A DNA stretch of 64,000 bases from Candidatus Omnitrophota bacterium (GTDB taxonomy: Bacteria; Omnitrophota; Gorgyraeia; JABMRG01; JAFGKX01), in the NCBI GenBank assembly GCA_043797125.1, contig JAZDPX010000045.1:8338-72337 (forward strand), written 5' to 3'. The notes beneath the pieces are model-generated. The model did no database searches, was not told where the DNA came from, and was given only the letters and a program-made list of their open reading frames with translations. Within the stretch, counting starts at the first letter, position 1. Each line of letters starts with the position of its first letter. This document shows positions 1-56,300 of the stretch, one piece after another. The translations under genes and the position numbers were made by a program.

Positions 1-3000
1 CAATATCAGAGATGCTGTTGCCGCGTAAAGAAAGCACGCCTGCAGTAATAGTCAGGGTGCCGTCTATGGCTAAAGCATTACCTAAACGGAATTCATCTGT
101 GGCGTTAGCAGCATTAATAGTTAAATGATAGTAGTCGCTGGCCCCGAAGTCCTTTATAACATATGGCCCGCTGCCTGCGCCCTTATACTCCCAGATACCG
201 GAATCAATGTCATTGCTATCCCAGGGAATATTTTCGCTACCCACTAGTTTTAAGGTACCATTATTGGTAATAGAAAGGCTGTTAGAATTAGTAACGCTCT
301 GGCCATTAAGGTCTAATGTCCCGGCAGTAATGGTTAAGCCAGCGTCAATTTCTAAGGCGTTACCGCTTAATTGTAAACTGCCTCCGGCTTTATTAATTTC
401 AATGTTTTGGAAATCCCGGCTGTCTCCTGTACCTCCACTATTAATGGTGGCAGCGCTTGCGGTAGTAAAAGTTACTGTCCCGGAAGAAGTAAAACTTCCA
501 TCAGCATTATCCCAGCTGCCGCGCACCGTTACGGCATTTGCTTCTGTGTTAAATGTGCCGTTATTTTCTATGCTATCTAAGCTCACTGCTGCGCCAGGAG
601 TGTAAGTTTTCCCTGAGTCAATCCAAACTTCATAACCCGTATCAAAAGTAAGTAGGCCTCCGGGAAAAGTATAATGTATATCGTCATCCCCAGAGTTATC
701 CGCTGTGGCTAAGAGATTATTAGTCAGTGGCCCGGCTGACTCATGGCGTAGGACAATTTTGCTAGTATACATTTCCAAGCCGGTAATTGAAGCAGCCGTA
801 GAAGCAGACAATGCTTGAGAAATCAGATTCGCCTCATAAGAGCCACTATCATCAATAAATAAAAGAATGGTATCATCTGCGTTGATACTTGCATAAAACC
901 AGAAAAATTTTCCATCTGAATTAGTCACGGCTGTAGTTTTAGCTGCGCCATTTACTGAAAGCCCCACAGTGACATCTGCTCCCACAGTGGCGCTCTTGGC
1001 TTCATCAGTATAAATAGTGCCGGAAATTGTTGGATTAAACTTAGTCACAAAAACATCGTAGTTTCCATTTTGCGTCTCATCATAAGCCCCGGCGGTAGTG
1101 GGATAATTGGTAGCCGCATTATAGGTATAACCGGTGATATAGACATTGCCAGCAGAATCTATGGCAATGCCACGGCCATAGTCATTATCGCTTCCTCCGA
1201 GAAAAGTAGAATAAGTAAGGCTTGCGCCCGTAGAGCTTAATTCACTTAAGAAAGCATCATCAACACCATTGTGTGTAGTGTCGTAGGCGCCGCCAGTAGT
1301 AGGATAATCAATGCCAGCATCAGCAGTATATCCGGTGATATAAGCATTGCCTGAAGAGTCTATGGCAATAGCATAGCCATAGTCGGCACCGCTTCCTCCG
1401 ATAAAAGTAGAATAAGTAAGGGCAGTACCGGTAGAATTAAGCTTGGTCACAAAGACATCATTACTGCCATTATGGATCTCATCATAAGCGCCGCCAGTAG
1501 TAGGATAATCAATGCCAGCATCAGCAGTATATCCGGTGATATAGGCATTACCTGAAGAGTCTATGGCAATAGCATAGCCATAGTCATCGCCACCTCCGCC
1601 GAGAAAAGTCGAATAGACAAGAGTGGTACCAGTAGAATTAATTTTAGTCACAAAGGCATCAACGTTACCATTCTGCCACTGATCATAGGCTCCGCCAGTG
1701 ATGGGATAATCAGTGGCTGCGTCAGCAGTGCGTCCGGTAATATAGGCGCATCCTGAAGAGTCTACAGCGATAGCTAAACCATAATCTTGACCGCTTCCGC
1801 CGAGATAAGTAGAATAAGTTAAAGCGCTACCAGCAGCATTAAGTTTAGTAATAAAGGCATCGACGCTGCCATTATAGACGGTATCATAGGCTCCGGCGGT
1901 AGTAGGATAACCGCCTGTACCGTATCCGGTAATATAGGCACAGCCAGAAGTATCTACGGCAATAGCATAGCCGCGATCAGTACCACCGCTGCCTCCGATA
2001 TAAGTAGAATAGACTAAGGCGGTACCGGTAGAATTAAGCTTGGTCACAAAAACATCTATCCAGCCATTCACTGTAGGATCATAAGCTCCGCTAGTGGTGG
2101 GAAAATCGTCGCTGAATGTATCTCCGGTGATGTAAGCATTGCCCGAAGAATCTATGGCAATGCCGCGTCCGCGGTCAGTATAGCTTCCACCAATAAAGGT
2201 AGAGTAAATAATGGCTGTGCCGGTAGCATTAAGTTTAGTCACAAAAGCGTCGTGGAAATTATTATGTGTCTGATCATAGGCTCCGGCGGTAGTAGGATAA
2301 TCGCTACTTGACGTATATCCGGTAATATATATATTACCGGATGAATCTACTCTCATAGCAAATCCATAGTCACCATTGCCTCCGCCAAGGAGAGTAGAAT
2401 AAGTCAGCGCAGTACCGGTAGAATTGAGCTTGGTTACAAAGACATCATTGCCGCCATTATGCGTCCGGTCATAAGCTCCGACAGTGGTGGGGTAATCTGT
2501 TGCCGCGTCAGCGGTGTAACCGGTGATATAGGCATTGCCGCCCGGGGAATCTATTACTATGCCATAGCCATAGTCATCACCACTTCCTCCGATAAAAGTA
2601 GAATAAGTCAGCGCAGTGCCGGTAGAATTAAACTTGGTCACAAAGACATCATAACCGCCGCCATTATTTGCCTGATAAGGATTCAGGGTGGGAAAGTTTG
2701 TTGAGCCTGTGTATCCTGTTACATAGGCATTCCCTGCGGCATCTATGGCAATGCCACGTCCGTAATCATTACCACTCCCGCCGATAAGAGTAGAATAGGT
2801 AAGCGCAGTGCCGGTAGAATTAAACTTGGTCACAAAGACATCCTCGCCGCCATTATGCGTGGTATCATAAGCGCCTCCGGTAGTGGGATAATCAGTCTCT
2901 GTATCAGCAGTATATCCGGTAATATAGGCATTGCCTGAAGAATCTACGACGATAGCCCTACCATAGTCACCAACAGTTCCAAGCTGACCACGCCCTCCTA

Positions 3001-5902
3001 TAAAAGTAGAGTAAGATAAACTGCTTGCGTCAGCGCTAAACTTAGTTACAACAGCAGTATCGCCATAGCCAAAAGTATCATAGGCTCCACTAGTGGTGGG
3101 ATAATCATAGCTATGCGCATATCCGCTGATATAAGCATTGCCTGCGGAATCTATGGCTAAAGCATATACTTCATCTTGCGCAGAGCTATAACTCCCTCCG
3201 ATAAAAGTAGAGTAGCCTAACGTAGGATCAATCACAAGAGGGTAATTCGTGTCATAATTATTTACACTAAATCCATAGCTATTATCCGAAAGCAGGATGA
3301 ATCCAGCGCTAACTTCCTGCTTTATCCCGGCAATATTCTGATAAGCATAGGGCTTGGCTTCTTTTAACTGGCCAAACTCAGTATCAATGATGAGGTTGCC
3401 GGATTCGTCAATGATTAAACTATTTACTCCTTCATAACCTAACTTTATATTTGCGTAATCTGCTCCGGAAGCTACTACAAATTCTGATTCTAAGTTTCCG
3501 TTTTTAGAGCTATAACTTAAATCCACTCCCTCATAGAGCCCCTGATAGATAATCTTATAATAGGAAGCGATATTGGTTTGGTGCTGACTAGAGTCATTAC
3601 CGATGAGGTAGTTAAAGATGGTGTTGGTAGATAGGCCGGGGGTTATCGAACTAGAGGAACTTGCGCCAAGGAAGCTCAGCCGGATATTTAATATATTGTA
3701 AGATTCTACGCTATTCTGTTGAGAGAGGCTATAAAGGATAAATTGATTTGTAAAGTAAATACGGCTCTCTTTAAAATAAATATAGAACTTAACTTGGGAA
3801 TCAGAGATCTGGCCCTGATTAGCAATAAAGTAAAGCGGGATGGAGCCAAGGTTAAGCTCGCCGTAACTTACTTCGCCAGAAGGTTTATCAACATCTATGT
3901 TGCCATAGATAGTGCCTGCGGAGTAATCAATGCGCTGGTTGCCCTCGCCCGCTAAACTGATATCTGCGTATATCCAGGAATTGGGATTCTGTAAAATGAG
4001 ATCACCTTTTAAAAAAACCTTGGAGGCTAAATCAGCGCTGCTGCCAAAAGAAGTATAGCTTTCGCCTTTAATAGTTAAATCTCCGCTAATAGTAAGGCTG
4101 CGCCTTAAGGTAATGGTACCTGTGTAGCCATCTATGGTAAATTGAGCGACTGTGCCTTGGAATGTCGCGTCAATTATTGAGTCTTTGTTTGTTTGAGGGT
4201 ATTGAGAGGTATTACCGTTAAATGTAACTATTGAATATTGGGTGGGGATTGTGCCTGTGTCCCAGTTGTTTGGGTCTGACCAGTTTTGCGTTTGGCCTTG
4301 GCCTGTCCAGATGGGGTCTAGATCCCAGTTGGTATTATTGCCAAGAGAGTCAGAATGTATTGCTTTAATAGGTGGAGCTCTGTTGTCTATACCGGGAGCT
4401 CTTGCGTTGTAACAATCCTGTATTAATATGTATGCTATATCAGTCTCGCCTTCCGGAATAATGCTATATTGCTTACCCGGTATTAAGGATTTTAACTTAA
4501 GGAGTTCGGCATATTTACCTTTTAAGGTTAATATGCCTTTTATGGTCTGGGTTGTGTCCGGGTCAAACTTAACTTCTTTGTTGGGTTCTTGGATGGTCAG
4601 GTTATTGAATGTGTTTGAACCTTTTATTATTGTTGGTTTAGCTGATATAAAGAAGAAGTTTGAGCTTTGTGGGATAAAGTTACCAAAGCCGTTTAAGTCT
4701 TTAGATACTTCATAGATGGCGTTATTGGCATTTATTGTTACGCCGTAATCTATTGTTAATGAGCCTTGGGTTATTATTGCAGAGTTTGGATATTGATTAT
4801 AAACAGCTGGAGCGCCTGCCGGCTTAAAGGTAATATCGCCTGCTGATACAATATTGGCAATATGGCTTTCGCCTGAAGATTGTAAGGTAATATCGCCGTA
4901 TGTGGTGGTTTTAATGGTGGCGTTAGGTGCTTGTTGTATCGAGCCTTCGCCGTTAAGATCGTTATCAGCAAGGATGTTGAGGTCGCCGGAGTCTACTGTT
5001 AAATCATCATTGATGTGTATGTCTTTATCTGATGCTATGGTTGTATCGCCGCTAAATTCGCCTGAGGCTTGAATGTCCTGGTTTGCTACTAACTTAATTA
5101 CGCCGTCTTCTTCTACTAGCTTAGTTGCCTTAACTATACCTGTGTTATTTACCGCATATTCAAAGATATCGTCCGCGGTTTTGGCGGACATAAATACCTG
5201 ATGGCCAACAAGCTCGCCTGAGTTCTTTATTTGATCTTTTACTGTGTTGCCTTCGGAATCGATTATTTTTTCAGTTACTTCTTCATTTACCTCAACTGAC
5301 ATCAGGGCTTGCGCATCAATGCTAACAGTTACCCTAACTCCGCATGATAGAGTCACTACTCCTAATTTAGCTGTAATTATGCCTGAATTATCAACCGCTC
5401 CTGCTAATAAAGCTGCGTTGCTTTCAGTTTCTATTCGGCCTTGATTTTTAATTAAAGCTGGGGCTACGCTCTTTTCTTGATCAAATATATAATTTGCTTC
5501 TATAAAGTTATTTGTTGATATATCCAGCGTCGAGGCTACAAGGGAGCCTGCATTAACACTGGCTGTGTCATGGAAATTAATGCCATTGGGGTTTGTTAAA
5601 AAAAGAATCCCGTTAGCATTGAGTGAGCCGTATATGTTTGTAGGATCTGAATCTAATATTCTGCTTAAAAGGGTTGCGTCCTGGGAAGGTTGGATAAAGT
5701 TTACTGTTTCATTGGTTTGAATATCAAAGGAATTAAAATTAATAACTGTCTTATCGTCTGCTGTTATATTAAGGGTAGTTTGATCCTGCTGGAAAGTCGC
5801 GCTGCCTTCTTCTATATTCCAGCCCTGCGGGAGGGCATATAATAGGCTAACAGAATGAAAACTAAATAAATATATAAGTATAAATATTATTTTATTTTTC
5901 AT
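1..5902 (-). CDS. Large TpsA-like (filamentous-haemagglutinin-type) secreted exoprotein, partial (C-terminus beyond left window edge); signal peptide + TPS secretion domain + beta-helix region + ~20 SBBP beta-propeller repeats
   Basis: Minus-strand ATG at 5902 (revcomp of cat 5900-5902). Translation starts MKNKIIFILIYLFSFHSVSLLYALPQGWNIEEGSATFQQDQTTLNITADDKTVINFNSFDIQTNETVNFIQPS...LNANGILFLTNPNGINF, a classic TPS/haemagg_act domain with NPNG motif. Sampled downstream segments stay open in the same frame. The ORF track lists no minus ORF starting at 5902, which implies no in-frame stop down to position 1. Region ~600-3250 encodes repeated units such as YDEIHNGSNDVFVTKLNSTGTALTYSTFIGGSGADYGYAIAIDSSGNAYITGYTADAGIDYPTTGGA (SBBP repeat signature). 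Confidence 0.8.
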   Translation of the reverse strand, partial: MKNKIIFILIYLFSFHSVSLLYALPQGWNIEEGSATFQQDQTTLNITADDKTVINFNSFDIQTNETVNFIQPSQDATLLSRILDSDPTNIYGSLNANGILFLTNPNGINFHDTASVNAGSLVASTLDISTNNFIEANYIFDQEKSVAPALIKNQGRIETESNAALLAGAVDNSGIITAKLGVVTLSCGVRVTVSIDAQALMSVEVNEEVTEKIIDSEGNTVKDQIKNSGELVGHQVFMSAKTADDIFEYAVNNTGIVKATKLVEEDGVIKLVANQDIQASGEFSGDTTIASDKDIHINDDLTVDSGDLNILADNDLNGEGSIQQAPNATIKTTTYGDITLQSSGESHIANIVSAGDITFKPAGAPAVYNQYPNSAIITQGSLTIDYGVTINANNAIYEVSKDLNGFGNFIPQSSNFFFISAKPTIIKGSNTFNNLTIQEPNKEVKFDPDTTQTIKGILTLKGKYAELLKLKSLIPGKQYSIIPEGETDIAYILIQDCYNARAPGIDNRAPPIKAIHSDSLGNNTNWDLDPIWTGQGQTQNWSDPNNWDTGTIPTQYSIVTFNGNTSQYPQTNKDSIIDATFQGTVAQFTIDGYTGTITLRRSLTISGDLTIKGESYTSFGSSADLASKVFLKGDLILQNPNSWIYADISLAGEGNQRIDYSAGTIYGNIDVDKPSGEVSYGELNLGSIPLYFIANQGQISDSQVKFYIYFKESRIYFTNQFILYSLSQQNSVESYNILNIRLSFLGASSSSSITPGLSTNTIFNYLIGNDSSQHQTNIASYYKIIYQGLYEGVDLSYSSKNGNLESEFVVASGADYANIKLGYEGVNSLIIDESGNLIIDTEFGQLKEAKPYAYQNIAGIKQEVSAGFILLSDNSYGFSVNNYDTNYPLVIDPTLGYSTFIGGSYSSAQDEVYALAIDSAGNAYISGYAHSYDYPTTSGAYDTFGYGDTAVVTKFSADASSLSYSTFIGGRGQLGTVGDYGRAIVVDSSGNAYITGYTADTETDYPTTGGAYDTTHNGGEDVFVTKFNSTGTALTYSTLIGGSGNDYGRGIAIDAAGNAYVTGYTGSTNFPTLNPYQANNGGGYDVFVTKFNSTGTALTYSTFIGGSGDDYGYGIVIDSPGGNAYITGYTADAATDYPTTVGAYDRTHNGGNDVFVTKLNSTGTALTYSTLLGGGNGDYGFAMRVDSSGNIYITGYTSSSDYPTTAGAYDQTHNNFHDAFVTKLNATGTAIIYSTFIGGSYTDRGRGIAIDSSGNAYITGDTFSDDFPTTSGAYDPTVNGWIDVFVTKLNSTGTALVYSTYIGGSGGTDRGYAIAVDTSGCAYITGYGTGGYPTTAGAYDTVYNGSVDAFITKLNAAGSALTYSTYLGGSGQDYGLAIAVDSSGCAYITGRTADAATDYPITGGAYDQWQNGNVDAFVTKINSTGTTLVYSTFLGGGGDDYGYAIAIDSSGNAYITGYTADAGIDYPTTGGAYDEIHNGSNDVFVTKLNSTGTALTYSTFIGGSGADYGYAIAIDSSGNAYITGYTADAGIDYPTTGGAYDTTHNGVDDAFLSELSSTGASLTYSTFLGGSDNDYGRGIAIDSAGNVYITGYTYNAATNYPTTAGAYDETQNGNYDVFVTKFNPTISGTIYTDEAKSATVGADVTVGLSVNGAAKTTAVTNSDGKFFWFYASINADDTILLFIDDSGSYEANLISQALSASTAASITGLEMYTSKIVLRHESAGPLTNNLLATADNSGDDDIHYTFPGGLLTFDTGYEVWIDSGKTYTPGAAVSLDSIENNGTFNTEANAVTVRGSWDNADGSFTSSGTVTFTTASAATINSGGTGDSRDFQNIEINKAGGSLQLSGNALEIDAGLTITAGTLDLNGQSVTNSNSLSITNNGTLKLVGSENIPWDSNDIDSGIWEYKGAGSGPYVIKDFGASDYYHLTINAANATDEFRLGNALAIDGTLTITAGVLSLRGNSISDI
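600..3250 (-). repeat. Tandem ~120-123 nt coding repeats (about 20 units) encoding SBBP-type beta-propeller repeats inside the TpsA-like gene
   Basis: Near-identical nucleotide units recur directly in the sequence, e.g. ...ggctccgccagtagtaggataatc...gcagtatatccggtgatata(a/g)gcattgcc...gaatctatggcaat...gtagaataagt.... Each unit translates on the minus strand to the Asp/Gly/Tyr-rich SBBP motif. Confidence 0.85.
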
Positions 5903-5949: not shown

Positions 5950-7173
5950 TTAAAGCATTGAAAAATGGCAATTGCTTACATTTTTAGCAACAGCGCCTGT
6001 GCGCTTTGATTGAGAAATTATAAGCCCTTTTCTGCTAAGCTTGCCTGATAGTTTTTGCCAGGTTTTTAGCGAGGCAGCGTGTTGTGTTGAAATTGTAGAG
6101 GATAACTTAATCTCTATGGGGAAAATCCCCTTTGCCGTCTCGATTAAAAGATCTACTTCAAAACCATCCACGCTCCTCCAAAAATACAGTGAGCAGGGAT
6201 CCTGAAAAGCGGAAAAACGTTTTACAAATTCGGTTATGCATGCTGTCTCGAATAACGCGCCTGCCATTGGGCCCTGCAACAGGTGGTCTTCGTTCTGCAG
6301 GCCAACCAAATAGGCCACAAGCCCGGTATCTAAAAAATAGCATTTTGGAGCTTTTATAATCCTTTTGCCGAAATTCTTATGATACGGGTACAACAGATAA
6401 ATAATAGAGCTTGCCTCTAAAAACGACACCCATGATTTTATTGTGGGAACCGTTACCCCTATTTCACGCGATAAAACAGAATAATTAAGTTCTTGCGCTG
6501 TTCGCGCAGCCAAAAGCCTTAGAAATCTTTCAAATTCATTAAGATTAGCTGTTTTTATGTTGCCCCTTACATCTCTATCAATATATGTCTGCACATAACT
6601 TGAAAACCATGTTTTTCTGGATATCTTTTTATTAACAAAAAGTTCGGGGTACCCACCCTGTAAAAGCCATTTACCTGCGCTGGGGTATTTCGCCGGAGGT
6701 TTTGTAGGGTTAATTAAAAAATTAATAAAATCCAAAGCATCTGATTTGTTTAATTTTAGGTCTTTTCTCATCTCAAACAGCGCAAAAGGATAAAGCGGTA
6801 ATACCGCAATTCTGCCTGCTAATGATTCGCTTACATTTCGCATCACCGGAAACTGCTGCGAGCCTGTTAAAACATAGCTGCCGGGTTTTCTGTTTTTGTC
6901 AATTTTTGCTTTAACATAAGGCAGTATTTGCGCGGCATTTTGAATCTCGTCGATTACGAGCGGCTGCTGGTACCTCTCCAGAAAACCTCTCGGATCTTCA
7001 ATGGCAAATGACCTGATATCTAACTCGTCCAATGAAACATAATTGTACTTTTTGCCTAAAACGTGTTTTACAAGAGTTGTTTTCCCTGATTGGCGGGGCC
7101 CCGTTACAAGGGCGGCGGGAAAGGTTTTTATGGAGTCCTTTAATGCCTTTTCTAGTAATCTGGTAATATACAT
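5950..7173 (-). CDS. AAA+ ATPase with DUF4143-type C-terminal domain (COG1373-like predicted ATPase), copy 1
   Basis: 407 aa. Walker A is GPRQSGKTTL near the N-terminus, followed by Walker B-like LVIDEIQ. Overall architecture matches the archaeal-type AAA_14/DUF4143 ATPases. It sits between the tpsB-like and tpsA-like genes. Confidence 0.75.
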   Translation of the reverse strand: MYITRLLEKALKDSIKTFPAALVTGPRQSGKTTLVKHVLGKKYNYVSLDELDIRSFAIEDPRGFLERYQQPLVIDEIQNAAQILPYVKAKIDKNRKPGSYVLTGSQQFPVMRNVSESLAGRIAVLPLYPFALFEMRKDLKLNKSDALDFINFLINPTKPPAKYPSAGKWLLQGGYPELFVNKKISRKTWFSSYVQTYIDRDVRGNIKTANLNEFERFLRLLAARTAQELNYSVLSREIGVTVPTIKSWVSFLEASSIIYLLYPYHKNFGKRIIKAPKCYFLDTGLVAYLVGLQNEDHLLQGPMAGALFETACITEFVKRFSAFQDPCSLYFWRSVDGFEVDLLIETAKGIFPIEIKLSSTISTQHAASLKTWQKLSGKLSRKGLIISQSKRTGAVAKNVSNCHFSML

Positions 7174-7247: not shown

Positions 7248-8987
7248 CTACACTTCTATCTGCAGCGCAAACGTAAAAGTGCTCGCCCCGGCTCCGGAGA
7301 TAGGCTTATTATCATCCATTTTTATCGCGTCTGCCCATTCGAGGCGAAGATAAAAATTGTCCGAAAAGCGGCACCTTACGCCGCCGCCTAAACCCATTAA
7401 AAACTTTTCTTTTTTAGTCTCACTTACTGTTGGATTTATAATCCCGGCATAGCCAAAATCGGCAAAAAGCACAGGCTGTATCTGTTTCTGCAAAGGCGCG
7501 TCTTGGCCTCTTACCTTCCATTGCTTGGGAATAAGATACATTGGAAATATCCAATCAATATTTAAATTTGCCCCGTAATCTCCGAGGAAGTCGCCTTCGG
7601 GAAAGCCCCTTACAGAATTTGCGCCGCCTAACTGAAATTGCTCCGCGGACGCAAGCGTGTGCGATGCAAGCTGAAGCCTTGAGCGCATTGCAATATAGCT
7701 GTCAAAAGGCATTAATTGAATGCGCCTTATAGAGTGTTCGTATTTAACAAAGGCCTTACCCGAGCCGTCCCTGCTTAATGTATTCTCATTGCGATTAGAC
7801 GCCCCTAAAAAATGCTCCGTGCCAAAGGTAAGCCTCGGAGCAAATACGGTCTGGCCTCCGAGGAAATCGTTTGCCGTAAAATCAAAACCAATATACGGCG
7901 AGCGCATCTCATCGTTAGTCGTAAGGTTATCCGCCATATATTTTTTTATGCTTTTTATTTCCAACCCTGCGTCTATATAGGCTTGAAATTTCTCTGACAA
8001 ATAAAGTTCTTTTGTAATATGCGGAGTAAGCATTTTTGTATTGCCTGTGATATCAAGGTATTTATATTCTTTCCCCACTCTCATAAAAAAATATACGGCA
8101 TCAAGCCCGAATTTTGTGCCGTAGGTATCAATCGGCAAAGAATAGCTTAAAGACTCGCCTAAAGAATCTTTAGTTGCAAGACTGCTTATGTATACGGAAT
8201 CCATTCGATTCAGCATATTTGAACTGCGCACGGAAACCGAATCTCTCCATCTTCCCACAAGCCTCGTTCCCTGGTTATCGCAGGAATTGCCGATATGGTG
8301 CGGGACGCTATCCGCAACCTTTAATGTAACATCTGATGTGCCTGGTTCCTTGCCGGCAGAAAGCATCGCCCTTATCGCGAGGTCGGGATTTTGGTTTAGA
8401 CTTAATATGTCTTTCTGGACCTTGTTGATATTTAAAATTTTATTTTTTGCCGTGTGAAAATACTTTTTAAGCAGGCCCACTGTAAACCATTTGTTGCCGT
8501 CTATAATTAACTCGCCCATCTTGCCTTCAGCCGCCGCGATTTCTATGTTACCGTCTTTTATCTCCTGCTCCGGTATATACGCGGTGCTGGTGATATAACC
8601 TTCCTGTTTATATTTTAATTTTATCTTATCAATTATAACCTGGAGGCCTTGAAAGGTTACCTGCTTATCAATATAGGGTTTATAGAGCGGAGCGAGGTCT
8701 TTTTCGCTAAAAATGGTGGAGCCCGTTATCTTAACCGATTTTAGGACAAAGGACGGGCCTTCCTGGGGAGGCTGCGGCTTTTCTTCTTCTACTTGTATTT
8801 CCGGGGTTTCGGCCTTTTCTTTCTCGAGTTGCTGTTTTTTCTGCTGCTGTTCTTCGTCAAAGCGCTCGGCCTGCGCGCCTATATCCTGGCCCGGGGGCTC
8901 TTGAGCAAAAGAAGGGCTAAGAAAAGAAAAAAACAAAGAAACTATAAACAATAAGATAAATATGCTTATGTGTTGAAGCTTAGTCAT
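7248..8987 (-). CDS. Two-partner secretion outer-membrane transporter TpsB (ShlB/FhaC/HecB family, POTRA + beta-barrel)
   Basis: 579 aa with an N-terminal signal peptide. POTRA-like segment: SFVLKSVKITGSTIFSEKDLAPLYKPYIDKQVTFQGLQVIIDKIKLKYKQEGYITSTAYIPEQ. C-terminal beta-barrel region ends in an aromatic residue pattern (...TFTFALQIEV). Same orientation as and upstream of the TpsA-like gene. Confidence 0.85.
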   Translation of the reverse strand: MTKLQHISIFILLFIVSLFFSFLSPSFAQEPPGQDIGAQAERFDEEQQQKKQQLEKEKAETPEIQVEEEKPQPPQEGPSFVLKSVKITGSTIFSEKDLAPLYKPYIDKQVTFQGLQVIIDKIKLKYKQEGYITSTAYIPEQEIKDGNIEIAAAEGKMGELIIDGNKWFTVGLLKKYFHTAKNKILNINKVQKDILSLNQNPDLAIRAMLSAGKEPGTSDVTLKVADSVPHHIGNSCDNQGTRLVGRWRDSVSVRSSNMLNRMDSVYISSLATKDSLGESLSYSLPIDTYGTKFGLDAVYFFMRVGKEYKYLDITGNTKMLTPHITKELYLSEKFQAYIDAGLEIKSIKKYMADNLTTNDEMRSPYIGFDFTANDFLGGQTVFAPRLTFGTEHFLGASNRNENTLSRDGSGKAFVKYEHSIRRIQLMPFDSYIAMRSRLQLASHTLASAEQFQLGGANSVRGFPEGDFLGDYGANLNIDWIFPMYLIPKQWKVRGQDAPLQKQIQPVLFADFGYAGIINPTVSETKKEKFLMGLGGGVRCRFSDNFYLRLEWADAIKMDDNKPISGAGASTFTFALQIEV

Positions 8988-9595
8988 ATATTATATATTA
9001 AAGCAATTTGCTTTCTTGTCAAGTATTTTGTCCTGCGCTTAAGCAGCCTTGAGGCAAGGATTATTTTCGCCTCTCTTTCCGCCATTATAGCCCTCAAACC
9101 GGCCTCTTTTAAGCTTGCGCCGACCGTCACCAGGCCGTGGTTTTTCAAAATAATACCGTTGTGTTTTTTCGCGGCGCAAGCGGCTATTGCCGCTAATTTT
9201 TTGCTGCCAGGCTGCGCAAACCCGACTTGCCTAATTCCGCTTTTGAAATATATTACGCAATCTATTGTTACGGGATTTAGCTTCTCGCCCATAGCCGCAA
9301 GCGCAAGAATCGCAACAGGATGCGTGTGCACAACCGCTTTTATATCAGGCCTTGCTTTGTAGCAGGCGCTGTGCAATTTCCACTCAATACTTACTTGTTT
9401 TATCTTTTTTATATCAACAAAATCCCGCGGCTTTGCATTCTTAAAGCTTGTCCCGCTTTTTTTAATATAGATAGCGCTTGCGCAGCGCGCGCTTATATTG
9501 CCGCTTACCGCGGCAACCAGACCCTCTCCTGCAAGCTCTCTTGCGCACTTCGCCAGCTGCTTTTTTATATCTTGCGCTTTCGTGTTCATGTTCAT
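8984..9595 (-). CDS. Class II aldolase/adducin-family protein
   Basis: 203 aa. Has the HTHPVAILALA motif and the overall similarity pattern of L-fuculose-phosphate aldolase / methylthioribulose-phosphate dehydratase-like enzymes. Its stop overlaps the tpsB-like start by 4 nt. An upstream TGgTAAAAT extended -10 lies 7 nt before the ATG. Confidence 0.7.
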   Translation of the reverse strand: MNMNTKAQDIKKQLAKCARELAGEGLVAAVSGNISARCASAIYIKKSGTSFKNAKPRDFVDIKKIKQVSIEWKLHSACYKARPDIKAVVHTHPVAILALAAMGEKLNPVTIDCVIYFKSGIRQVGFAQPGSKKLAAIAACAAKKHNGIILKNHGLVTVGASLKEAGLRAIMAEREAKIILASRLLKRRTKYLTRKQIALIYNI

Positions 9596-10434: not shown

Positions 10435-10455
10435 ATGCGAAACATAGGAGATTAT

Positions 10456-11892
10456 ATGCTTAATCCGTTGCGGAAAAAGGCAGTTATAAAATTTACAATG
10501 TGGGCGCTGATTGCCACTTTTGTTCTTTGGGGAGTAGGAAGCGCAACCATGACAACGCGCAATTACGCCGGTATAATATACGGCAGAAAAGTATACCCGC
10601 AGGAATACCAAAGTGCTTATTCCGCAGTTTTAACCCGCGCTAAGATACGTTATGGAGATAAGCTGCCTCAGGTAAGCAAATACATAGACCTTGGAGAGCA
10701 GGCATGGGACAGGCTGCTTCTTTTGCAATATGCCAAAAGAAGGCGCCTTAATGCGTCTAATAGGGATGTTATAGAAAGAATCGCCCAGATGCAGCTTTTC
10801 CAGCGCGGCGGTTACTTTGACAAAAGCGGCTATGATTATATTGTGGAGAATATATTCGGCATATCAGAAAGGCAATTTGAGGAATCGGTAAGAGAAGATA
10901 TTATAATCTCGAAGCTTGTTGAAGCCATGCAAAACGAAGTAACTGTTTCTGATGAAGAAATCCTGGAGGGCTACAGAATAAAAAATGAAAAGGCAGACAT
11001 AAGTTATATTTTAATAAATGCCGATTCGTTCAAGAATGAGGTTGTCATTGACGACAAAGAGCTTGAGCCTTTTTATAATGCCAATACAGAGCAATTCCGC
11101 AGCCCGGAAAAAATAAATGCTTACTATGTAAAAGCTCCATTTGCTGCGGGCGAGGCTGAAAGCTCTGCCGGTGACAAGGCCAAGAAAGAGGCCGAGCGCT
11201 TGGCTCACGAAATAAACGATTATTTAAATACCGGAGAGGATTTTAGCGCGCTGGCTCAAAAATATAACTTAGAGCTCAAAGAAACAGGCCCGTTTGCGCT
11301 TAGCGAGGAAATACCCGAAATAGGGCTCTCTTATCCTTTCTCCATAACAACCGCTTCGCTGGGTGATGAAAAGACAAATGATGTAGTAGAGGAAAAAGAC
11401 GCGTTTTACGTAATAAAATTAAAAGAAAAAACTCCTTCCAGTATCCGTTCTTTCCAGGAAGCGCAGGCTGATGTGCGCTTGGCGCTTATAGCCGATAAGG
11501 CTGACAAGCTCGCCCTGGCTTCTGCGCAAAATTATGCGGATATCCTAAAATCCGGAAAAGACACCCTAGAAAATATATCTCAGCAACTCGGTGTTGAATT
11601 AAACAAAAGGCAGGATATCGCAAGGCAGTCTTCTGTAGACGGGGTAGGAAACAACCCTGAATTTAACAGCGCCTGTTTTTCAATTAATGAGCAGGGGTCT
11701 GTCGGCCCTGTTAAGGTAGAAAACGGCTACGCCATTATCAGGCTTGACAAATTAAAGCCCCCTGATCAGGCGGCTTTCGAAAAAGAAAAACAGGAATTCT
11801 CAAAAGAGCTGCTTGATAAAAAGAGGGGTAAGTTTTTTGAGGATTGGTTCGTTGATTTTAAAAAACACGCAAATCTTAAGAAAAACATTTAA
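10456..11892 (+). CDS. Membrane-anchored periplasmic chaperone / peptidyl-prolyl isomerase, PpiD/SurA-like
   Basis: N-terminal TM helix (AVIKFTMWALIATFVLWGVGS), a SurA-N-like region and a C-terminal parvulin-like segment. The ORF-track start at 10435 lies inside the predicted -10 element, so the ATG at 10456 with SD aggag is preferred. Confidence 0.55.
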   Translation: MLNPLRKKAVIKFTMWALIATFVLWGVGSATMTTRNYAGIIYGRKVYPQEYQSAYSAVLTRAKIRYGDKLPQVSKYIDLGEQAWDRLLLLQYAKRRRLNASNRDVIERIAQMQLFQRGGYFDKSGYDYIVENIFGISERQFEESVREDIIISKLVEAMQNEVTVSDEEILEGYRIKNEKADISYILINADSFKNEVVIDDKELEPFYNANTEQFRSPEKINAYYVKAPFAAGEAESSAGDKAKKEAERLAHEINDYLNTGEDFSALAQKYNLELKETGPFALSEEIPEIGLSYPFSITTASLGDEKTNDVVEEKDAFYVIKLKEKTPSSIRSFQEAQADVRLALIADKADKLALASAQNYADILKSGKDTLENISQQLGVELNKRQDIARQSSVDGVGNNPEFNSACFSINEQGSVGPVKVENGYAIIRLDKLKPPDQAAFEKEKQEFSKELLDKKRGKFFEDWFVDFKKHANLKKNI

Positions 11893-47338: not shown

Positions 47339-50300
47339 TTACGCCTGCGCCTCTATCGCTTCTGTTGCCTGCTTTATCTCATCAAGGACCTTGCCGATTT
47401 CCGCTGAGGTAATCGGCGGCAGCATCTTAGCGATAACCTGGGCAACGCTCGGCTGGCTGGAGTGCAGCTTGCTTAAAGTATAAGCCAGCATAGCTTCAAA
47501 ACTTACCACGCCTTTATCCGGCTGCTGCGAAGTGATGAAAAACGATATGTTTCTGCCGGACCTGGCCTGGTTTCCTTCGTTAACAACTTCCGCTATGCGT
47601 TTTAAACCATTTTCTCCATAGCCCGGGTCGCAGATTACCCCGATTGCCGCGTAGTTGTTGTTTTCTTTCTGCTGCAGAAGCTCTTTTAATTTCTTTAGCT
47701 TGAGCGCGTCTTTTTCAACATCGTCCATCGTGTCGAACTCCGACTGGATATAACCCTTAACCTTGCCTCTTAGGAAATCATCTAGCTCAAGTACGTCGTG
47801 CCTGTCTAAGCGCTCGTTCAGCTCAACGACAAGCGATTCTTTCCTGTTTTTATCAGGGACTATTAATATGTTGAACTTGCCCCCGCTTCTCGCTGTTTGC
47901 ATGCGGGCAAGTTCGGCAATCCTATCTTTATCTTTTTCTGTTACAACAGACTCATATATCACCAGCGTATAAATATTTCGCGAGTTCTGGCTGAATTCAT
48001 CAACGCTGTATTGCTCGTTCGCTCTTTCGAGCATCTCGTCGCAGGCTTCCCTGAAAAGCTGCTCGTAACTTTTTGCTTCCGGCCCTGGCTTTGCCTCGGT
48101 GGGCGGCGGAGTTTCGTCGCTTAAAAAGCGCTCCGGATCGTTTTTAAAATATGTATTTTGTATCGTTTCTACCTCTTCTTTGGTAAGAATTCGCATTACC
48201 TTTTTATTTGCTGCATGATCAAATTCATACCTTGCCACCTCGCCGTTTCCGACAGGCACGACAAAAAGCGCGTCTTTAAGTATGTTCGCGATTTTAGAAA
48301 ATTTGGTGTAGCCGCTAAGTATGGCTTTGGAGTTCTGTAGATACTTTGTGCCCGCGATTGCCACAGCCTCAAGCGGGTCTATCAGGGCGTATTCTTCTTC
48401 GTTCGGATTTTCTAATTTTATTAAAGTTATCTTATTTTTTTCATAAACAGAACGCAGTTTTTTAAACTCATCCAATTCGCTGTCCATTATTGCCTGATCC
48501 ATGTTAGACGGCAGATAACAATACTTTTCGCCTCCTACTTCACGCAGCCATTGCCCATTCCAAATTTCGCGGAATTTTTTGTAGTCGTAATCATCGGGAA
48601 TATCGTCGATTTTTTTAATCTCGCCGCCGATTATAGCCCCGTAAAATCCCGCGGCCTTCGCCGCTTCTTTCCAGGCCCTGACTGACATTATCGGCTTTCC
48701 CGCGCGGTAGCTTGACATGGAAAACTTATGCACAAACTCATGCTCGATGGTAAGGAAATCTGCCGAGGCTAAATCCCACTGCACATTATCCATGCTTTCA
48801 AGGCCCGTTTGCCCTTTCACGCCATACGGAAGCTTTGTAGCTTCTGACCCTACTGGAACGCTGATAAACTGCCTTAGTCTCTTTGGGAACCAAGTAATGG
48901 CCTCTCTGGCCATATCAAGTTTTTCCTCGGGGATATATCTCATAATCTCCACGTTTTCTTCCTGCTTTGTCTGCTTAACAAAATTAAAATGCCTTATAAA
49001 TTCAACGACAGGCGCGTCTTTTTCGGGCACCTGGCTTATTACCTCGTCTAAAAGTTCGCTGAGCTTCTCGATATTTATTCTGCCGTTTTCTTTTTGAGCG
49101 CCTTGTGGATTGGATATATAGTCTTGCGCTAATTTTATCGCTGTATCAATAAGCCTGATCTTTTTAAGCAGCACTAATTTTACAAAATCGCGCGCGTTAA
49201 GGCCTGATAGCTTATTTATTAATACGCCGTCTTTTTCAAGGCCTATTCTTCGGGCTATTACTTTTGCCGCCTCAAAAGCGTCTCTTCTGTGGGCGTGCAT
49301 CTGGGGCATTTTTTGTTTTGCGTCCTCGCTAAGGCCGCAATACACAAGATAGCCGCTTTCAGCATGCCTTATCAGGCCTATTGTTTTATAAAAGTTATGA
49401 AGCGCCATCTCTTCTCTTAAAAGTTCTTTTGGCTTGGCGCTTTGCCTGCGCAGCCTAACGCTATCTGTGCCGGTAATACTCCTTAAAATAATAGCTGCGC
49501 CTCTTTTCTCTATTGCTAATATATAATTAAACCTGACCTCCCATGTTGAGTGCTCCGGATCATAGTTATCATAGCCGCCGAAGAAATAAGGCAGCCCGTC
49601 TTCCAGCGGGTGGATTGAAATAGTTTCTCCGGTTTTTAGGTTTATCTCTTTAAGCGCCAGTCCGCTTGCGTTTAACCGGTCTTTTTCTAAAACATACTGA
49701 TTATCTCCGGCAAAAATTATTATTGGCTCGCTATACGAGAATCTTATTTCATTTTTGCCCGTTAAAACAATTTCTTCGTCCGACAGCGGCGGGAACGCCG
49801 CCTTCCAGTATTCCGCCGCTTTTCTATTTTTCGCAAAATCCGCCCAGTTTTTAAGCATCCTTTCTATCTTTCCTCTGTTAGGCAAAAACTTTTGGTCTTT
49901 GTTTGCCGCCATCTCAAGCGCCAATTCGTATATAAAACCTAATATCTTAAAAGCTTCCCTGGCGTCATCTTTGTTGTTAATTGTCACGTCCTCGTGAACT
50001 TTTCCGGCTTTTTGTTTATATTTTTTCTTTATCGCGGCTTCTGTCAGTTCGCTGATTCCAAGCGCCTTAATTACAAAAGCCTCCAATGAATCCCAGTTTG
50101 CGTCGTTAACATTCGCGATTTGCTCTAATATAAATTCCCTCGCCGCCATTCTAATTTTACTTAACATTACGCCATAGTCTGCCTTAAGAGCGCCTGCCGC
50201 GTTTCTGGCGGCATCCATAAATACTTCGTTCTCGCCTAATGCAACGAGAACTTCCGCGTCTTTCTTAAGTGCGTCATCTGGAGTATTTATTATCCAGAGC

Positions 50301-53300
50301 ATCACAGCTTCGTGCGCATTCGCTTCAAGCGCGCCTGTTTTTACGAAGTTTCCGACAGCTTCCCTGGCCTTATCTTGTATGCCGGGGGTATCCCAGCGTA
50401 CGCCCCCCATGCCAGTCGGCAGCGGCGGGGCGGTGGGCGTTATCCGCGCTGCTATAAAGCAACTATCAATAGAATATTTCGGCTCATAACTGAATGGATG
50501 CGTTTTGCTTAAGGGAAGTATTTCGTAATTTTTTGAGGCAATCACGGTCTGAATTAGGCCAAGATTTGAGTAAATTGCGGCGCTCGTAGGTATAAGCACT
50601 GCCTCGCAGTTTAAGGCCTTGGCTAATTCCTTGGCGTAATCAATAAGCTTGTTATATATATCATCCGCGGCAACCCCGGTTAACAGGCTCGTGCTTGGGT
50701 TAATGCCGGGAAGAACAAGGTATTTTTTGTTGTTATCTTCTATAATTAACACATACATGCCGCCTTGGGCAATACCATTCGAATCAAATATGATTATATT
50801 GATAAAGTTGGGATTATTCCAAAGCCTTTCATCTTCTGCGGTGCATGCGCCCATATTCAGGCCTGCTACGCCGTGGGCTTTTCTCTTTGAGGCAACGAAT
50901 CTTAACGCAATTTTTTCTTGCGATTCCTGGAATTCATATTTCCTCTCCACTTCAGCCTGCATGTGTTCATATTCACTTCCCTGCAAGAGCTTGGTTATGA
51001 TGGCTGCTTCTTTGCCTTGCTGCATCTTAAAGGTTGTGGATTTTAATTCGTTTTGTATTGATTGCTCGTCTGTTTTATCTTTTACTTTTTCCCATATCGC
51101 ATCAGCCGTATAATCGTCATCTATTCTTAGCGCCTTCTTGATTAATTGTATCAGCTGACGCTCATCCTTCTTTTCGCGAGCTTTAAGTATGTTAAATACT
51201 GTTTTAGCGGCGCCTTCTGGTCTTTCTATTCTGACGCTGAGCATCTTGTCATACGACTCTTGATTTTGCTTTTTATACGCAGCAATACATTCACCGGCTA
51301 GATCTCGCAAGGTGTCCCCCATAAATACATTTATATCGATAATATTCCCAATTATTGCCAATGATTCTGGCAGCATCCTGTTGCCGGAACTCCTGTAGTA
51401 GCGATATAGTTGTTCCAATAAATCTTCCCTGACATTGTGTAGGCCCCCCATTTTCCACTGCTCAAGAAGCTGTCCGCCTAAACTGGCTGCTTTTTCTTTG
51501 TCCGGCGCTAACAAGGCTTCCCCGTTTACCTTGGCAATAACCTGCCGGATAGTTCGCCACGGACTAGCATCTAATGGCATGGACGGGTCCTTTAAGATAT
51601 ATTGGCCGACAGATATATCGATCGGTTTTGTTTCTTGCAAATGCGCTGGTATCTCCTTTGTGTCTTGCGGCCTGTCGGCTCTATTTTTGTACATCGCAAA
51701 ATAACTTCCCCTTTGGACGGTTACTGCGGGCGGGAATATATATAATAGCATTGTGCTGAACAACGGGTCTTTGTCTGCTTTGGCTGTGTCGCCTTCTAAT
51801 ATCTCATTATGTATGCGCTTGCACCTTTCTATGAGCTCATTTAGCTTCCTTGGATTGTTCTTATATGCTTCATATACGCTAACTATGGCATAGGGGTTTT
51901 CTTTTAGGAAAGCGTTGATTTGGTCTTTTTCTTTTGATATTGGTTTTGAGATTACGCCTTGTTTAACGCCCAAAAGGAGGAAGTTTTCCAATAAATCATA
52001 TGCCCTTATGCCGTGTGTTTGTATAAATTCTTTAATAAAAGCCAGGTCAGCCTCTGATTCTATCGCGCCAGCAGCAAACAGCTTTTTCGTAACTCCGAGA
52101 CAAAGGAACGCGCCCTGGCGCTGCTTAAAGAATATGGGTTTGAAAAATATTTTCCAGGATTGGGGCCATTTCCTCAATATGGGTTCTGCTTCATGTATCT
52201 GCTCTATTAGTTGATATTCAACGCCTGCGGATAATGTTAGCGCTTGTATTAAATCGTATCCTATTTTAATAAAGTCGTCTTTTGTATTAATAGCCGAGTC
52301 AAAAAGATAAAACATTCTGGCAAAATGTTCTGTATTTGCTGCTGTCTCTTTAAGGAATCCCGTTAGCTTTGCAAAAAAGGTTGGCTCTGCTATATCATCA
52401 AGCCCTGTCTTTGTTATTACAAAAAGGCCTATAAGAATACTGACAAGCCGTTCCTGTTTTAGGCCTGTGGCGGTTTTAAGTGCTTCTGTTACGCTGGCTA
52501 TCTCGTCCTGCGCTTTGGCAAATAACCGCTTATCAAATATTCCTACTCTTGCGTGCTCTGCGGTTATGGCTGCTAAGGCTTCGGCTCTATCAAGCTTATT
52601 GGTTATTTTTTCTGCTGTGGTTATCGCATCTTTAAACTTTCCTGCCTTTGTCTGCTCTGCTGCTACGCCTTTAAGGGCTAATGATTTATTATCGGTATCG
52701 GTGATGATGCTTGCTGTAGCGAGGGCGTCATTAAACATCCCTGCCTTTGCCTGTTCTATTGCCAGCTCCTTAAGGATGGCTGGTTTAAGATGAGCGCCAT
52801 CTATGGTTTTTGCTGTAGCGAAGGCATCATTAAACGTATTTTTTGCTTCATCAAGCATGCCTGCTTTTGCCTGCTCTGCTGCTATGCCTTGAAGGGCTTC
52901 TGCTTTATGTTTGGTATCGGTGATGGTGCTTGCTGTGGCGAGGGCGTCATTAAACGTATTCTTTGCTTCATCAAGCATGCCTGCTTTTGCCTGCTCTGCT
53001 GCTATCTCTTTAAGAGCTAATGATTTATAATAGGCGTTGGTTATGATGCTTGCTGTGGCGATGGCGTCATCCAGCTTGCCTATCTTTGCAAACCATTTTG
53101 CAATAACGATGAGGGCTTCTGGTTTGTCATCGGTATAGGTGCTGGTTTTTGCTGTGGCGAGGGCATCTATTAATGCTTTGTTTGCGTCATCCATCCTGCC
53201 TGCTTCTGTAAACCCTTCTGCGACAGCGGCGAGGGCTTTTGCTTTGTCAACGGCTTCGGTAATGGTGTTTGCTGTGGCGAGGGCATCTTCAAACATCCCA

Positions 53301-56300
53301 ACCCTTGCCTGCTCTGCTGCTATGCCTTGAAGGGCTTCTGCTTTATGTTTGGTATCGGTGATGGTGCTTGCTGTGGCGAGGGCATCATCAAACATCCCCA
53401 CCTTTGCCTGTTCTATTGATATCTTCTTAAGGGCTAATGTTTTATAATAAGCATTGGTGATGGTATTTGCTTTGGCGATGGCATCATTAAACGTATTCTT
53501 TGCTTCATCAAACATGCCTAGCTTTGCCTGCTCTATTGCTATCTCCTTAAGGACGGCTGGTCCACGATAAACGCCATCTATGGTTTTTGCTGTGGCGAGG
53601 GCATCTATTAATGCTTTGTTTGCGTCATCCACCCTGCCTATCTTTGCAAACCATTTTGCAATAACGATGAGGGCCTTTAGTTTGTCATCGTCATGGGTGA
53701 TGGTTTTTGCTGTGGCGAGGGCATCTATTAATGCTTTGTTTGCGTCATCCACCCTGCCTATTTCTGTAAACATTTCTGCGGCAGCGGCAAGGGCTTTTAC
53801 TTTATCAGCGGCATTGGCAATGGTTTTTGCTGTGGCGAGGGCGTCTATTGATGCCAAACAAAATATCTGCAGTAAAGAGCGCACGGTATCTGTAGCATTT
53901 TTAATTTTCTCTAATATCTTCTCCCTGCCCTGCTGAATTGCCCCTTGTGAATTTTCAATATCTTTTAAGAATGCCTCATTCTGCCCAAGCTTAACCAGCA
54001 CTTCATCGTCAATAAAGGGCTGCTCGTGTATTATCGCGAGAGCAAGCGCCTCGAATTCGCCGCGGCCTATTTCCTGGCCGGCTTTAAGTTTTGCTACTGC
54101 TTCTTTTGCCCTTTTAAAGGTGCGCTCATCCGGCACCATCCCGCCGTTGCCCAGCGGTATAATTTTACCCGCCATGTAAATCTGCTGCGCCAGTTCAACC
54201 GGTATGCCGGCTTTGCCGTTTTCATCAAGTTTGTCGTCTTCCAGGTAAGGCTTAACCTTTGTTTCATAATAATTAAGCCATTCCCGGAATAGCATCTTAG
54301 CGACTTTGTCTTCTTCCGGTTCGCCTTCTCTCTGCTTTGTAAGCGTTTGCTGGAAATCTCCTATTATAACCATACGTTCCTGAACCCTTGAAATCGCGAC
54401 ATTTAAACGCCGTATGTCTTTTAAGAATCCTATTTCCGGCTTCCCGGGGTTGCTTCTTACAAAATCGATTATAACAACCTTTTTCTCCTGGCCTTGTATG
54501 CTGTCAATGGTGGTAATTTCAAATTTTTTGTGGAATATTTTCTCAAGCTTTTTGTCAATGTAAGCCTGTTGTGCTTTATATGGAGTAACAATTATGAAGT
54601 CTTCTGGTTTGTAGTTATATTTCTGCATAAGCTTGGTTATTTCATTTACCACTTCTTCCGCGTTGCCTTTGTTCCAGAGAGACTTTCCGTATTCTGTATT
54701 TCGCCAGCCGCGCCTTTCTCTGTATTTATCCGCGTACCAGCGGTTGCCATCCTTGCCGTTTTGATTGTTTCGCAGCGTTGAGGTGTCTATTATTTTAAGC
54801 GTATCTTTGTCGAACGGCTCCCAGCCTCTTTTCTGAAGTTTCGCCTGCCACCACTTATGCTGTTTCCACCATTCTTTTTTCAGCTGCCTTTCGCATTTTT
54901 TCTGAAACTCTTCACCGTAAGAAATGGCCACCAGGCCGGTGTGTATGGGGTGTGAACGCCAGCAGGTAGACAAGGTGATGTGGTCGGCATATGCCGGGTC
55001 GATTATATTTATTAAGCCCGTGTTGTATAGGCCTGTCTGCTCTTTTGTTAAGCCGTATTTTTCCCCGATTACATCATGATCCGCCGGGAAAGGCCCGAGT
55101 TGGTTGGGGTCTCCTATTATAATGACTTTTTTCGCCAGCCTAAGCGCTATAAGCACCTCTGGTAAGGTTGGTTTACTTGCCTCATCAATTATAAGGACAT
55201 CGAACATCGCTTTATCAAAATTAATCGTTTTGTCCATATAAAATCCGACCGATGTTCCCGCCGCGATAAACGCGTCATTGTTTTCTCTGCGCTTTTCCTC
55301 AAAAGACAACAGATTTTCCTTGATTTGCGTAGAAAACTTTCTGACTTCGTCTATTGTGATATCGCCCATCTTGTTGCCAAGCCTTAAGATTGGAATGCTG
55401 CCGTCTTTCACCAGCTCTTCCAGGGCCTTATCCACGGCTACGTGAGTCTGGGCGGTAATAAGCACTCTCTCGCCGCGCTTAACAAACTGTTTTGCTATTT
55501 CAGTAACGACCTTTGTCTTGCCGGGGCCGGGCGGGCCTATCACAACCGTCAAATCCTGCTTGGAATTAAGGCATAGCTCGACAGCCTTTTGCTGGGATTC
55601 ATCGCCTTCGATTTCCTCGTCTATAAAAGCAAAGTCCGCGCCTAAGTCTAAGTCGTTGCTGTCTGTATCCTGCGGCCATTCCGCGGCCGGCATAAGCCCA
55701 AGCATTCTTTTTATTACGCTGTTGTAGTTTCTGCCGTTATTCTTTTTTATGTCCTCTATCAGGCCGTCTAATACTTTAAACTGCAGTTCGTAGGCTGCGA
55801 CGTTAGGATTTTCCTTGTTTTCAGCGGATGCCTTCTTTTCTGTGTCTATCAAAGCATCCAGCACTTTTATGTATGTCTCCAGCTCATCGAGCGCTTGTTT
55901 TTTGCTTTTTGGCTGAACTTTATTCTTTTTATACAGTTTTACGTTAGATGGCGGAAGTTTCCCGACGCCTGGGAAAATTTCGGCGGCGGTTTGCATCCAT
56001 TCGATTACGGAGAGCAAGCGCTGTTTTTTCTTTTGCGGCGTATCTTCTTTCTTTGCCAGGTCAATTATCATCTTCTGGCCTTGCGGCAATATACCCAACG
56101 GCGCCAACGATGCCATTTCCCAGGATGCCTTAATCAATGCTTGCTCGCCTATGTCTTGCGAAACTTCTTCCAGCAATTCCACCGCCGGCTTTAAAAATGC
56201 CTCTATATCTTTTGCAAACACGTTGTATGCGCAAATAAGCAATTCTCTTTTTGTTTCTACGCTTACTTCGGCATTGGTTTTAAGGTCTGCCGGCGGATAA

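Follow-up and report, generated by a model that had tools for sequence, protein, structure and literature searches.

A predicted two-partner secretion exoprotein of Candidatus Omnitrophota that contains a DUF7948 and SBBP beta-propeller cassette

Introduction

What kind of protein is encoded by the long minus-strand gene that runs off the edge of the analysed stretch of this Candidatus Omnitrophota contig (JAZDPX010000045.1, assembly GCA_043797125.1), and what would it carry to the cell surface? The gene, tpsA, occupies positions 2-5902 of the 64,000-nucleotide stretch analysed here (contig positions 8,338 to 72,337; the window). Its sequence supports the assignment of the encoded product as the N-terminal 1,967 residues of a TpsA exoprotein, the exported partner of a type Vb two-partner secretion (TPS) system of Omnitrophota, because a TPS domain and a TpsA-like fold are found together with an adjoining gene for the transporter, TpsB. 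Embedded in this exoprotein is a cassette made of one DUF7948 domain and 11 SBBP repeats, part of which is predicted to form a beta-propeller. We consider it probable that the TpsB-exported protein is a beta-helix stalk presenting the DUF7948-propeller as a ligand-binding, attaching head; by analogy, an adhesin or binding function is plausible. The parts of the protein are as follows (aa, amino acid positions; AF2, AlphaFold2; pLDDT, predicted local distance difference test), and related proteins and loci are given below as P and L numbers.

5834..5902, minus strand: ATG start (5902) and the Sec signal peptide predicted for aa 1-23 (MKNKIIFILIYLFSFHSVSLLYA), from translation, inspection and an AF2 helix
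5054..5797, minus strand: TPS secretion domain, aa 36-283 (Pfam PF05860, 81 bits, cutoff 33.5; TIGR01901, 68.9 bits, cutoff 29.1)
3830..5053, minus strand: family-specific beta-helix 'linker', aa 284-691 (all-beta in AF2, high pLDDT to about aa 610; blastp coverage)
3221..3829, minus strand: DUF7948 domain, aa 692-894 (Pfam PF25778, 193.3 bits, cutoff 27; AF2 pLDDT about 80-95)
1022..3214, minus strand: array of 11 SBBP beta-propeller repeats, aa 897-1627 (regular expression and unit table; Pfam PF06739)
2..1021, minus strand: post-propeller beta-rich repeat region, aa 1628-1967 (no stop; the gene runs past the window edge)

Reading frame and N-terminal secretion module

Translation of the minus strand from the ATG at 5902 to base 2 gives 1,967 codons with no in-frame stop. 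The list of open reading frames (ORFs) for 1-5902 contains no minus-strand entry, because the listing program leaves out ORFs that extend past the window edge. The initial annotation had proposed a long minus-strand gene missing from that list, and the translation agrees with it; its suggestion that TPS and SBBP profiles would match the product is also confirmed, with both models above their cutoffs (81 and 231 bits).

The N-terminal part has the secretion signal usual for two-partner systems. Residues 1-23 begin with a basic stretch that gives way to a hydrophobic one ending in ...LYA, and AF2 places a helix at aa 2-16; the annotated signal peptide, judged by inspection and with a putative cleavage site, fits this short hydrophobic N-terminus. 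The domain that follows is, as had been annotated, a TPS domain of the filamentous haemagglutinin (FHA) type, with PF05860 above its cutoff, an NCBIfam adhes_NPXG match at aa 54-129 and the NPNGI motif at aa 104-108 (window 5579-5593). In sequence searches of the PDB, the N-terminal 700 residues or so match EtpA (4.5e-31), HMW1 (1e-22) and HxuA. An AF2 model of the N-terminal 700 residues, built with 20 family sequences, has a mean pLDDT of 82.4 and a predicted template modelling score of 0.77, is all-beta and confident to about aa 610, and finds its best PDB fold matches in EtpA, HMW1, HxuA, FHA and HpmA. The linker contains an NWSDPNNWDTG motif (aa 540-550) and is common to about 20 Omnitrophota TpsA proteins, the best stretches in the search of representatives lying at about aa 265-615.

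The window protein thus resembles FHA/FhaB, HMW1, EtpA, HxuA and ShlA/HpmA in its signal peptide, NPNGI-containing TPS domain, predicted beta-helical continuation and adjoining Omp85-family TpsB. Unlike the classical TpsA proteins, its first TPS motif reads DPTNI rather than the usual NPNL, a candidate defence gene splits tpsB from tpsA, and the passenger is not beta-helical throughout, being interrupted by a 940-residue cassette of DUF7948 and 11 SBBP units.

The DUF7948-SBBP cassette

The region after the TPS domain had been described as beta-helix-like up to the repeats. That description holds for the predicted beta-helix up to about aa 690, but it overlooked the distinct DUF7948 domain at aa 692-894 that precedes the repeats. 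The repeat array matches SBBP (PF06739) at 230.7 bits (cutoff 20.5) in 10 stretches, and consists of 11 units of 64-72 aa in about 2.2 kb; Tandem Repeats Finder reports 9.8 copies of a 201-nt period at 1034-2969. An earlier count of about 20 repeats in about 2.6 kb was about twofold too high. Compared pairwise, the units are 44-82% identical in protein and 66-82% in DNA; copies that have diverged this far rule out an artefact of assembly from identical repeats. The closest pair, units 9 and 10 (79% protein and 82% DNA identity), points to a relatively recent tandem duplication inside the array. The ortholog P0001 has exactly 7 SBBP units, so that the window protein has four extra ones.

An AF2 model of aa 690-1627 (mean pLDDT 76.7) is confident for DUF7948 and for SBBP units 2-8, and specifically for residues 275-736 of the modelled segment, with pLDDT below 50-60 for unit 1 and units 9-11. 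Units 2-8 are predicted by this model to form a 7-bladed propeller. Sequence searches of the PDB with the DUF7948-SBBP module gave no match, and it was by fold comparison only that CylK was found: the top Foldseek match of the cassette is the propeller of CylK (PDB 7RON/7FH6; E about 1e-21 to 1e-22, about 480 columns, 20-22% identity), which makes this seven-bladed protein the closest solved fold of the propeller part. Membership of the window protein among the CylK-like alkylating enzymes was rejected, since DUF7948 precedes its propeller and no Pfam beta-roll family is found, in a comparison made at the level of the N-terminal domain.

Could the head nevertheless be an enzyme? CylK is a Friedel-Crafts alkylating enzyme of cyanobacterial natural-product biosynthesis and not a TPS substrate, and its active site lies at the interface of its N-terminal domain and propeller (PMC8916777). 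By comparison, DUF7948 on the top face of the SBBP propeller would form a CylK-like active site in a TpsB-secreted enzyme acting on host or prey surface molecules or polymers. That the best solved structural match is the propeller of an alkylating enzyme, and that glycoside hydrolase and carbohydrate-binding-module genes stand beside the genes for the relatives P0150 and P0172, is in keeping with this idea. However, catalytic Arg105 of CylK is supplied by an N-terminal Ca2+-binding beta-roll (PMC8916777), which is absent from the window protein, where DUF7948 is found and Pfam detects no beta-roll. Identity to CylK is low (20-22%), beta-propellers are mostly binding scaffolds, and no catalytic family was matched in either Pfam or NCBIfam. 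We regard an enzymatic head as unlikely.

Cysteine content gave no signal. Depletion of cysteine might be expected in cargo that is kept unfolded in the periplasm, and the TPS-linked propeller module contains 2.1 cysteines per 1,000 residues, where the median of 109 other modules is 4.1; no signal can be read from this because 34 of the 109 are equally low and the other TPS-linked modules are not low.

The TpsB partner and the integrity of the gene

Two genes lie directly upstream of tpsA.

7248..8987, minus strand: TpsB outer-membrane transporter, 579 aa, MFH0732789.1 (Pfam POTRA_2 PF08479 and ShlB PF03865)
5950..7173, minus strand: AAA_14 and DUF4143 ATP-binding protein, MFH0732788.1, between tpsB and tpsA (Pfam)

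The tpsB gene lies 1.3 kb upstream of tpsA on the same strand, and its product is 49% identical to the TpsB that adjoins P0001. In 19 further related loci, TpsB orthologs (43-52% identity) are encoded upstream of a TpsA. The intervening ATP-binding protein matches the PADLOC candidate anti-phage defence family PDC-S01 (E=3.5e-107), its gene is missing from all 24 related TPS loci, and it probably stands outside the secretion system.

The window TpsA has no close counterpart on record. In two very large protein collections none is closer than 46% identity, and neither contains a protein at least 50% identical across the whole of a 900-residue TpsA query. Neighbours from the same contig, namely NrdD (100% identical to MFH0732795.1 of a Candidatus Omnitrophota metagenome-assembled genome), TpsB, the ATPase and the SurA-like protein, are present in the NCBI-derived collection, and this difference suggests that the source annotation does not translate the gene; tpsA is probably left untranslated there (flagged as a pseudogene), or excluded for some other reason. 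The position index of genes also lacks the source genome. In the word-indexed homology search nothing above 3,417 aa was listed, whereas the exhaustive search of representatives found, with scores as good or better, many relatives of 3,500-7,160 aa; the word-indexed search may therefore under-report very long proteins.

If tpsA were a decaying or disrupted pseudogene, or if its repeats were mis-assembled, no functional protein would be made. A pseudogene tag in the source annotation would explain a missing record beside recorded neighbours, and the insertion of an unrelated gene between tpsB and tpsA fits the same picture, although the absence from the collections may equally stem from extreme length or an index gap. 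The frame is nevertheless open for 1,967 codons, with all domains intact and in the same order as in the ortholog P0001; the divergence of the repeat units (at most 82% DNA identity) speaks against an assembly collapse, and the cognate TpsB is intact and 49% identical to the partner of P0001. For these reasons we think it quite unlikely that the gene is dead.

Relatives and origin of the architecture

How widespread is this architecture? The best full-length match, P0001 (2,366 aa), is 46% identical over aa 5-1357, has the same order of TPS domain, DUF7948 and SBBP repeats, and is encoded directly downstream of a TpsB gene. The combination, found also in a small number of uncultured bacteria besides this one, occurs in five other clusters formed at 90% identity, represented by P0001, P0150, P0172/P0257, P0177 and P0190; P0225 is an N-terminally truncated fragment of the same architecture, and P0190 is also truncated. 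A TpsB gene adjoins all four relatives whose loci were looked up (P0001 in L001/L006, P0177 in L002, P0150 in L003/L004 and P0172 in L005), a set that did not include P0190. In a scan of one genome per GTDB species, which gave 25 family loci, nearly all from Omnitrophota metagenome-assembled genomes, DUF7948-SBBP was found only at the P0001 locus. The view that TPS plus SBBP is unusual for TPS cargo is supported with a qualification: a propeller module is atypical of TpsA passengers and the combination is rare, being confined to 1 of 24 related loci from GTDB species-representative genomes, but it is not unique, and the window TpsA is less exceptional than the initial annotation held. Its components are all known and it does not constitute a new kind of system; the combination is undiscussed in the papers searched. 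Our literature search found no paper linking TPS with SBBP, and a search for Omnitrophota together with two-partner secretion returned nothing relevant. A 2012 survey lists TPS-exported toxins with filamentous-haemagglutinin repeats only (PMC3482391). The architecture is already in the databases under an uninformative name, the public name of P0172 (MDD5644105.1) being only 'SBBP repeat-containing protein'.

Most of the family shares only the front of the protein. About 20 other proteins, mostly from Candidatus Omnitrophota, have only aa 1 to about 620 in common with the window TpsA. The Omnitrophota TpsA family (for example P0002-P0016, L007-L030), annotated as 'filamentous hemagglutinin N-terminal domain-containing protein', is 45-51% identical to it over aa 1 to about 615, has TpsB upstream and carries similar beta-rich repeats after the cargo. 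The cargo itself differs, consisting of PATR repeats, YDG/MBG domains, an RCC1-like propeller (P0011) or no recognised domain. Propellers other than SBBP thus occur in TpsA proteins, the RCC1-like one of P0011 and a YncE/lactonase-type one in P0072. At least 10 family members with different cargo have the C-terminal modules of P0001 near their own C-termini. Judged from these sequences, the Omnitrophota TpsA family is modular, with an N-terminal module of about 600 residues that is conserved, C-terminal modules that many members share and a variable middle, because some 20 proteins share the N-terminus only, the cassette is shared only with P0001, and the C-terminal part resembles that of other members.

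The TPS-linked DUF7948-SBBP proteins differ from the window protein in their proportions. In P0150, P0172 and P0177, which fall outside the Omnitrophota TpsA family, about 80-110 residues separate the TPS domain from DUF7948, compared with 400 in the window protein; SBBP motif counts are 4-7 (7 in P0001) compared with 11; a post-propeller region is lacking in P0150 and P0172, and P0177 (2,421 aa) has thrombospondin type 3 repeats in addition. Generic DUF7948-SBBP extracellular proteins of Acidobacteriota, Bacteroidota and others have a module 30-49% identical to that of the window protein, but they and Leptospira LipL53 lack a TPS domain and have instead a lipoprotein signal, a type IX secretion system sorting domain, or PKD or Ig domains. 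Membership in the LipL53 family (NF047494) was rejected at 128 bits against an equivalog cutoff of 400.

When 99 DUF7948 domains were compared by neighbour-joining, the seven TPS-linked ones formed one clade and were mutual best BLAST matches; the sample was seeded by the same queries, the tree has no bootstrap values, and the truncated DUF7948 of P0190 was left out of it. Taken together, the clade and the mutual best matches point to a single fusion event followed by divergence. The cassette of the window TpsA would accordingly belong to a small, always TPS-linked DUF7948-SBBP lineage.

Post-propeller region and C-terminus

The protein continues past the propeller for 340 residues (aa 1628-1967) in which Pfam finds no match, and which partly resemble the beta-rich repeats of P0003, P0004, P0011 and P0025. 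A scan of genome contigs with aa 1535-1967 found no relative, an exact 44-mer gave no match in metagenome contigs, and a scan of metagenome contigs with aa 1628-1967 returned only fragments of 33-42% identity.

Could the part of the gene outside the window encode a toxin? In CdiA, itself a kind of TpsA protein, a region in the middle of the chain binds the receptor and the toxin at the C-terminus varies. The unseen C-terminal end of this incomplete gene leaves room for a CdiA-like contact-dependent-inhibition toxin or another polymorphic toxin, with its immunity gene, in which the propeller would serve as the receptor-binding domain. The initial annotation had placed a C-terminal effector part, and possibly a toxin with an immunity gene, in this position, and the relatives lend that no support. 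VENN or a similar pre-toxin motif is found neither in the window fragment nor in the eight relatives checked with it (P0001, P0150, P0172, P0177, P0003, P0004, P0011 and P0025). The complete relatives P0150 (1,079 aa) and P0172 (1,151 aa) stop directly after the propeller, and the C-terminal part of P0001 consists of beta-rich repeats and a Pro/Ala-rich tail, without a toxin domain. The genes that follow P0001 encode a 262-aa protein and AbiEii rather than a small immunity protein, and the C-terminal module of the family is conserved and non-polymorphic. Given the absence of VENN, the relatives without toxin domain or immunity-like neighbour and the conserved C-terminal module, a toxin of the contact-dependent-inhibition type is unlikely.

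In locus L001 (17287-24978), the 262-aa protein of unknown function and AbiEii that follow the P0001 gene form a putative AbiEi/AbiEii-type pair. Next to this pair lies a gene for another TpsA (1,907 aa; MBG_2 and YDG domains), with no second TpsB gene in between.

Possible function

If the window TpsA is a stalk with an attaching head, its route to the surface can be pictured from established knowledge of type Vb secretion. The protein would cross the inner membrane via Sec, its TPS domain would dock on the POTRA domains of TpsB, and the unfolded chain would be threaded through the TpsB barrel and fold outside the cell. The beta-helix would then form the stalk and the DUF7948-propeller the ligand-binding head on top, by which a very small, probably host-dependent bacterium might attach to other cells or polymers. 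The propeller itself appears to be the cargo, because complete short relatives consist of TPS domain, DUF7948 and SBBP repeats alone. Omnitrophota have been proposed to be host-dependent nanobacteria with large surface proteins for adhesion (PMC10066038). According to the title of Oliveira 2010, as cited in PMC11350617, the SBBP lipoprotein LipL53 binds extracellular matrix.

Several points weigh against this reading. Adhesion is argued by analogy only, DUF7948 and SBBP repeats in general have no established function, and the closest solved fold, that of CylK, belongs to an enzyme. Eleven repeats exceed one 7-bladed propeller, and the AF2 model is unconfident for unit 1 and units 9-11. The C-terminus lies past the window edge, and tpsA, having no protein record when its neighbours have theirs, may be flagged as a pseudogene or disrupted downstream.

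A broader proposal, which we put forward tentatively and consider possible rather than probable, is that the TpsA scaffold of Omnitrophota and a few other uncultured lineages is an exchangeable display system in which the central cassettes are swapped, that the DUF7948-SBBP lineage is dedicated to TpsB export, and that the 11-unit array is a non-canonical head. Were this so, the type Vb pathway could routinely thread closed multi-blade propellers and let them fold outside the cell; the 11-unit head would include a second, partial propeller or form a ring of more than seven blades, and could tune attachment to particular host or prey cells.

In current models of two-partner secretion, stepwise folding of the beta-helix outside the cell helps to drive export. 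A recurrent TpsA lineage with an embedded closed propeller would be a natural test substrate for folding-driven export and would show that folds other than the beta-helix are tolerated by the pathway. The lineage also nominates a tractable candidate adhesin family with swappable heads in Omnitrophota, a group in which few factors for attachment between cells are known. At about 1,100 residues, the short relatives with TPS domain, DUF7948 and SBBP repeats are small enough for direct secretion and ligand-binding work, which could give a first function for the DUF7948-SBBP modules that are widespread in environmental bacteria.

Neighbouring genes

Promoter-like hexamers are found upstream of tpsB, the ATPase gene and tpsA, their total not being above that in shuffled sequence, and no RNA family of Rfam matches anywhere in the window. 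A class II aldolase gene (8984-9595, minus strand) overlaps the start of tpsB by 4 nt (8984-8987), an overlap that suggests co-transcription; the longest-ORF version of the aldolase is not in the protein collection, and the annotated start may differ. At 10435-11892 on the plus strand, 1.4 kb from tpsB, lies a gene for a SurA-like periplasmic chaperone and peptidyl-prolyl isomerase with SurA_N_3 and rotamase domains (MFH0732792.1), which could aid the periplasmic transit of outer-membrane and TPS proteins, or its position could be coincidental. Farther along the window, a giant ORF of 5,529 aa (47339-63928, minus strand) contains an HD phosphohydrolase domain, an SF1 helicase (AAA_11/AAA_12/AAA_30), several TPR repeats and a weak, sub-threshold DnaJ match; since no secretion domain was detected in it, it resembles a multi-domain protein of the cytoplasm more than an adhesin.

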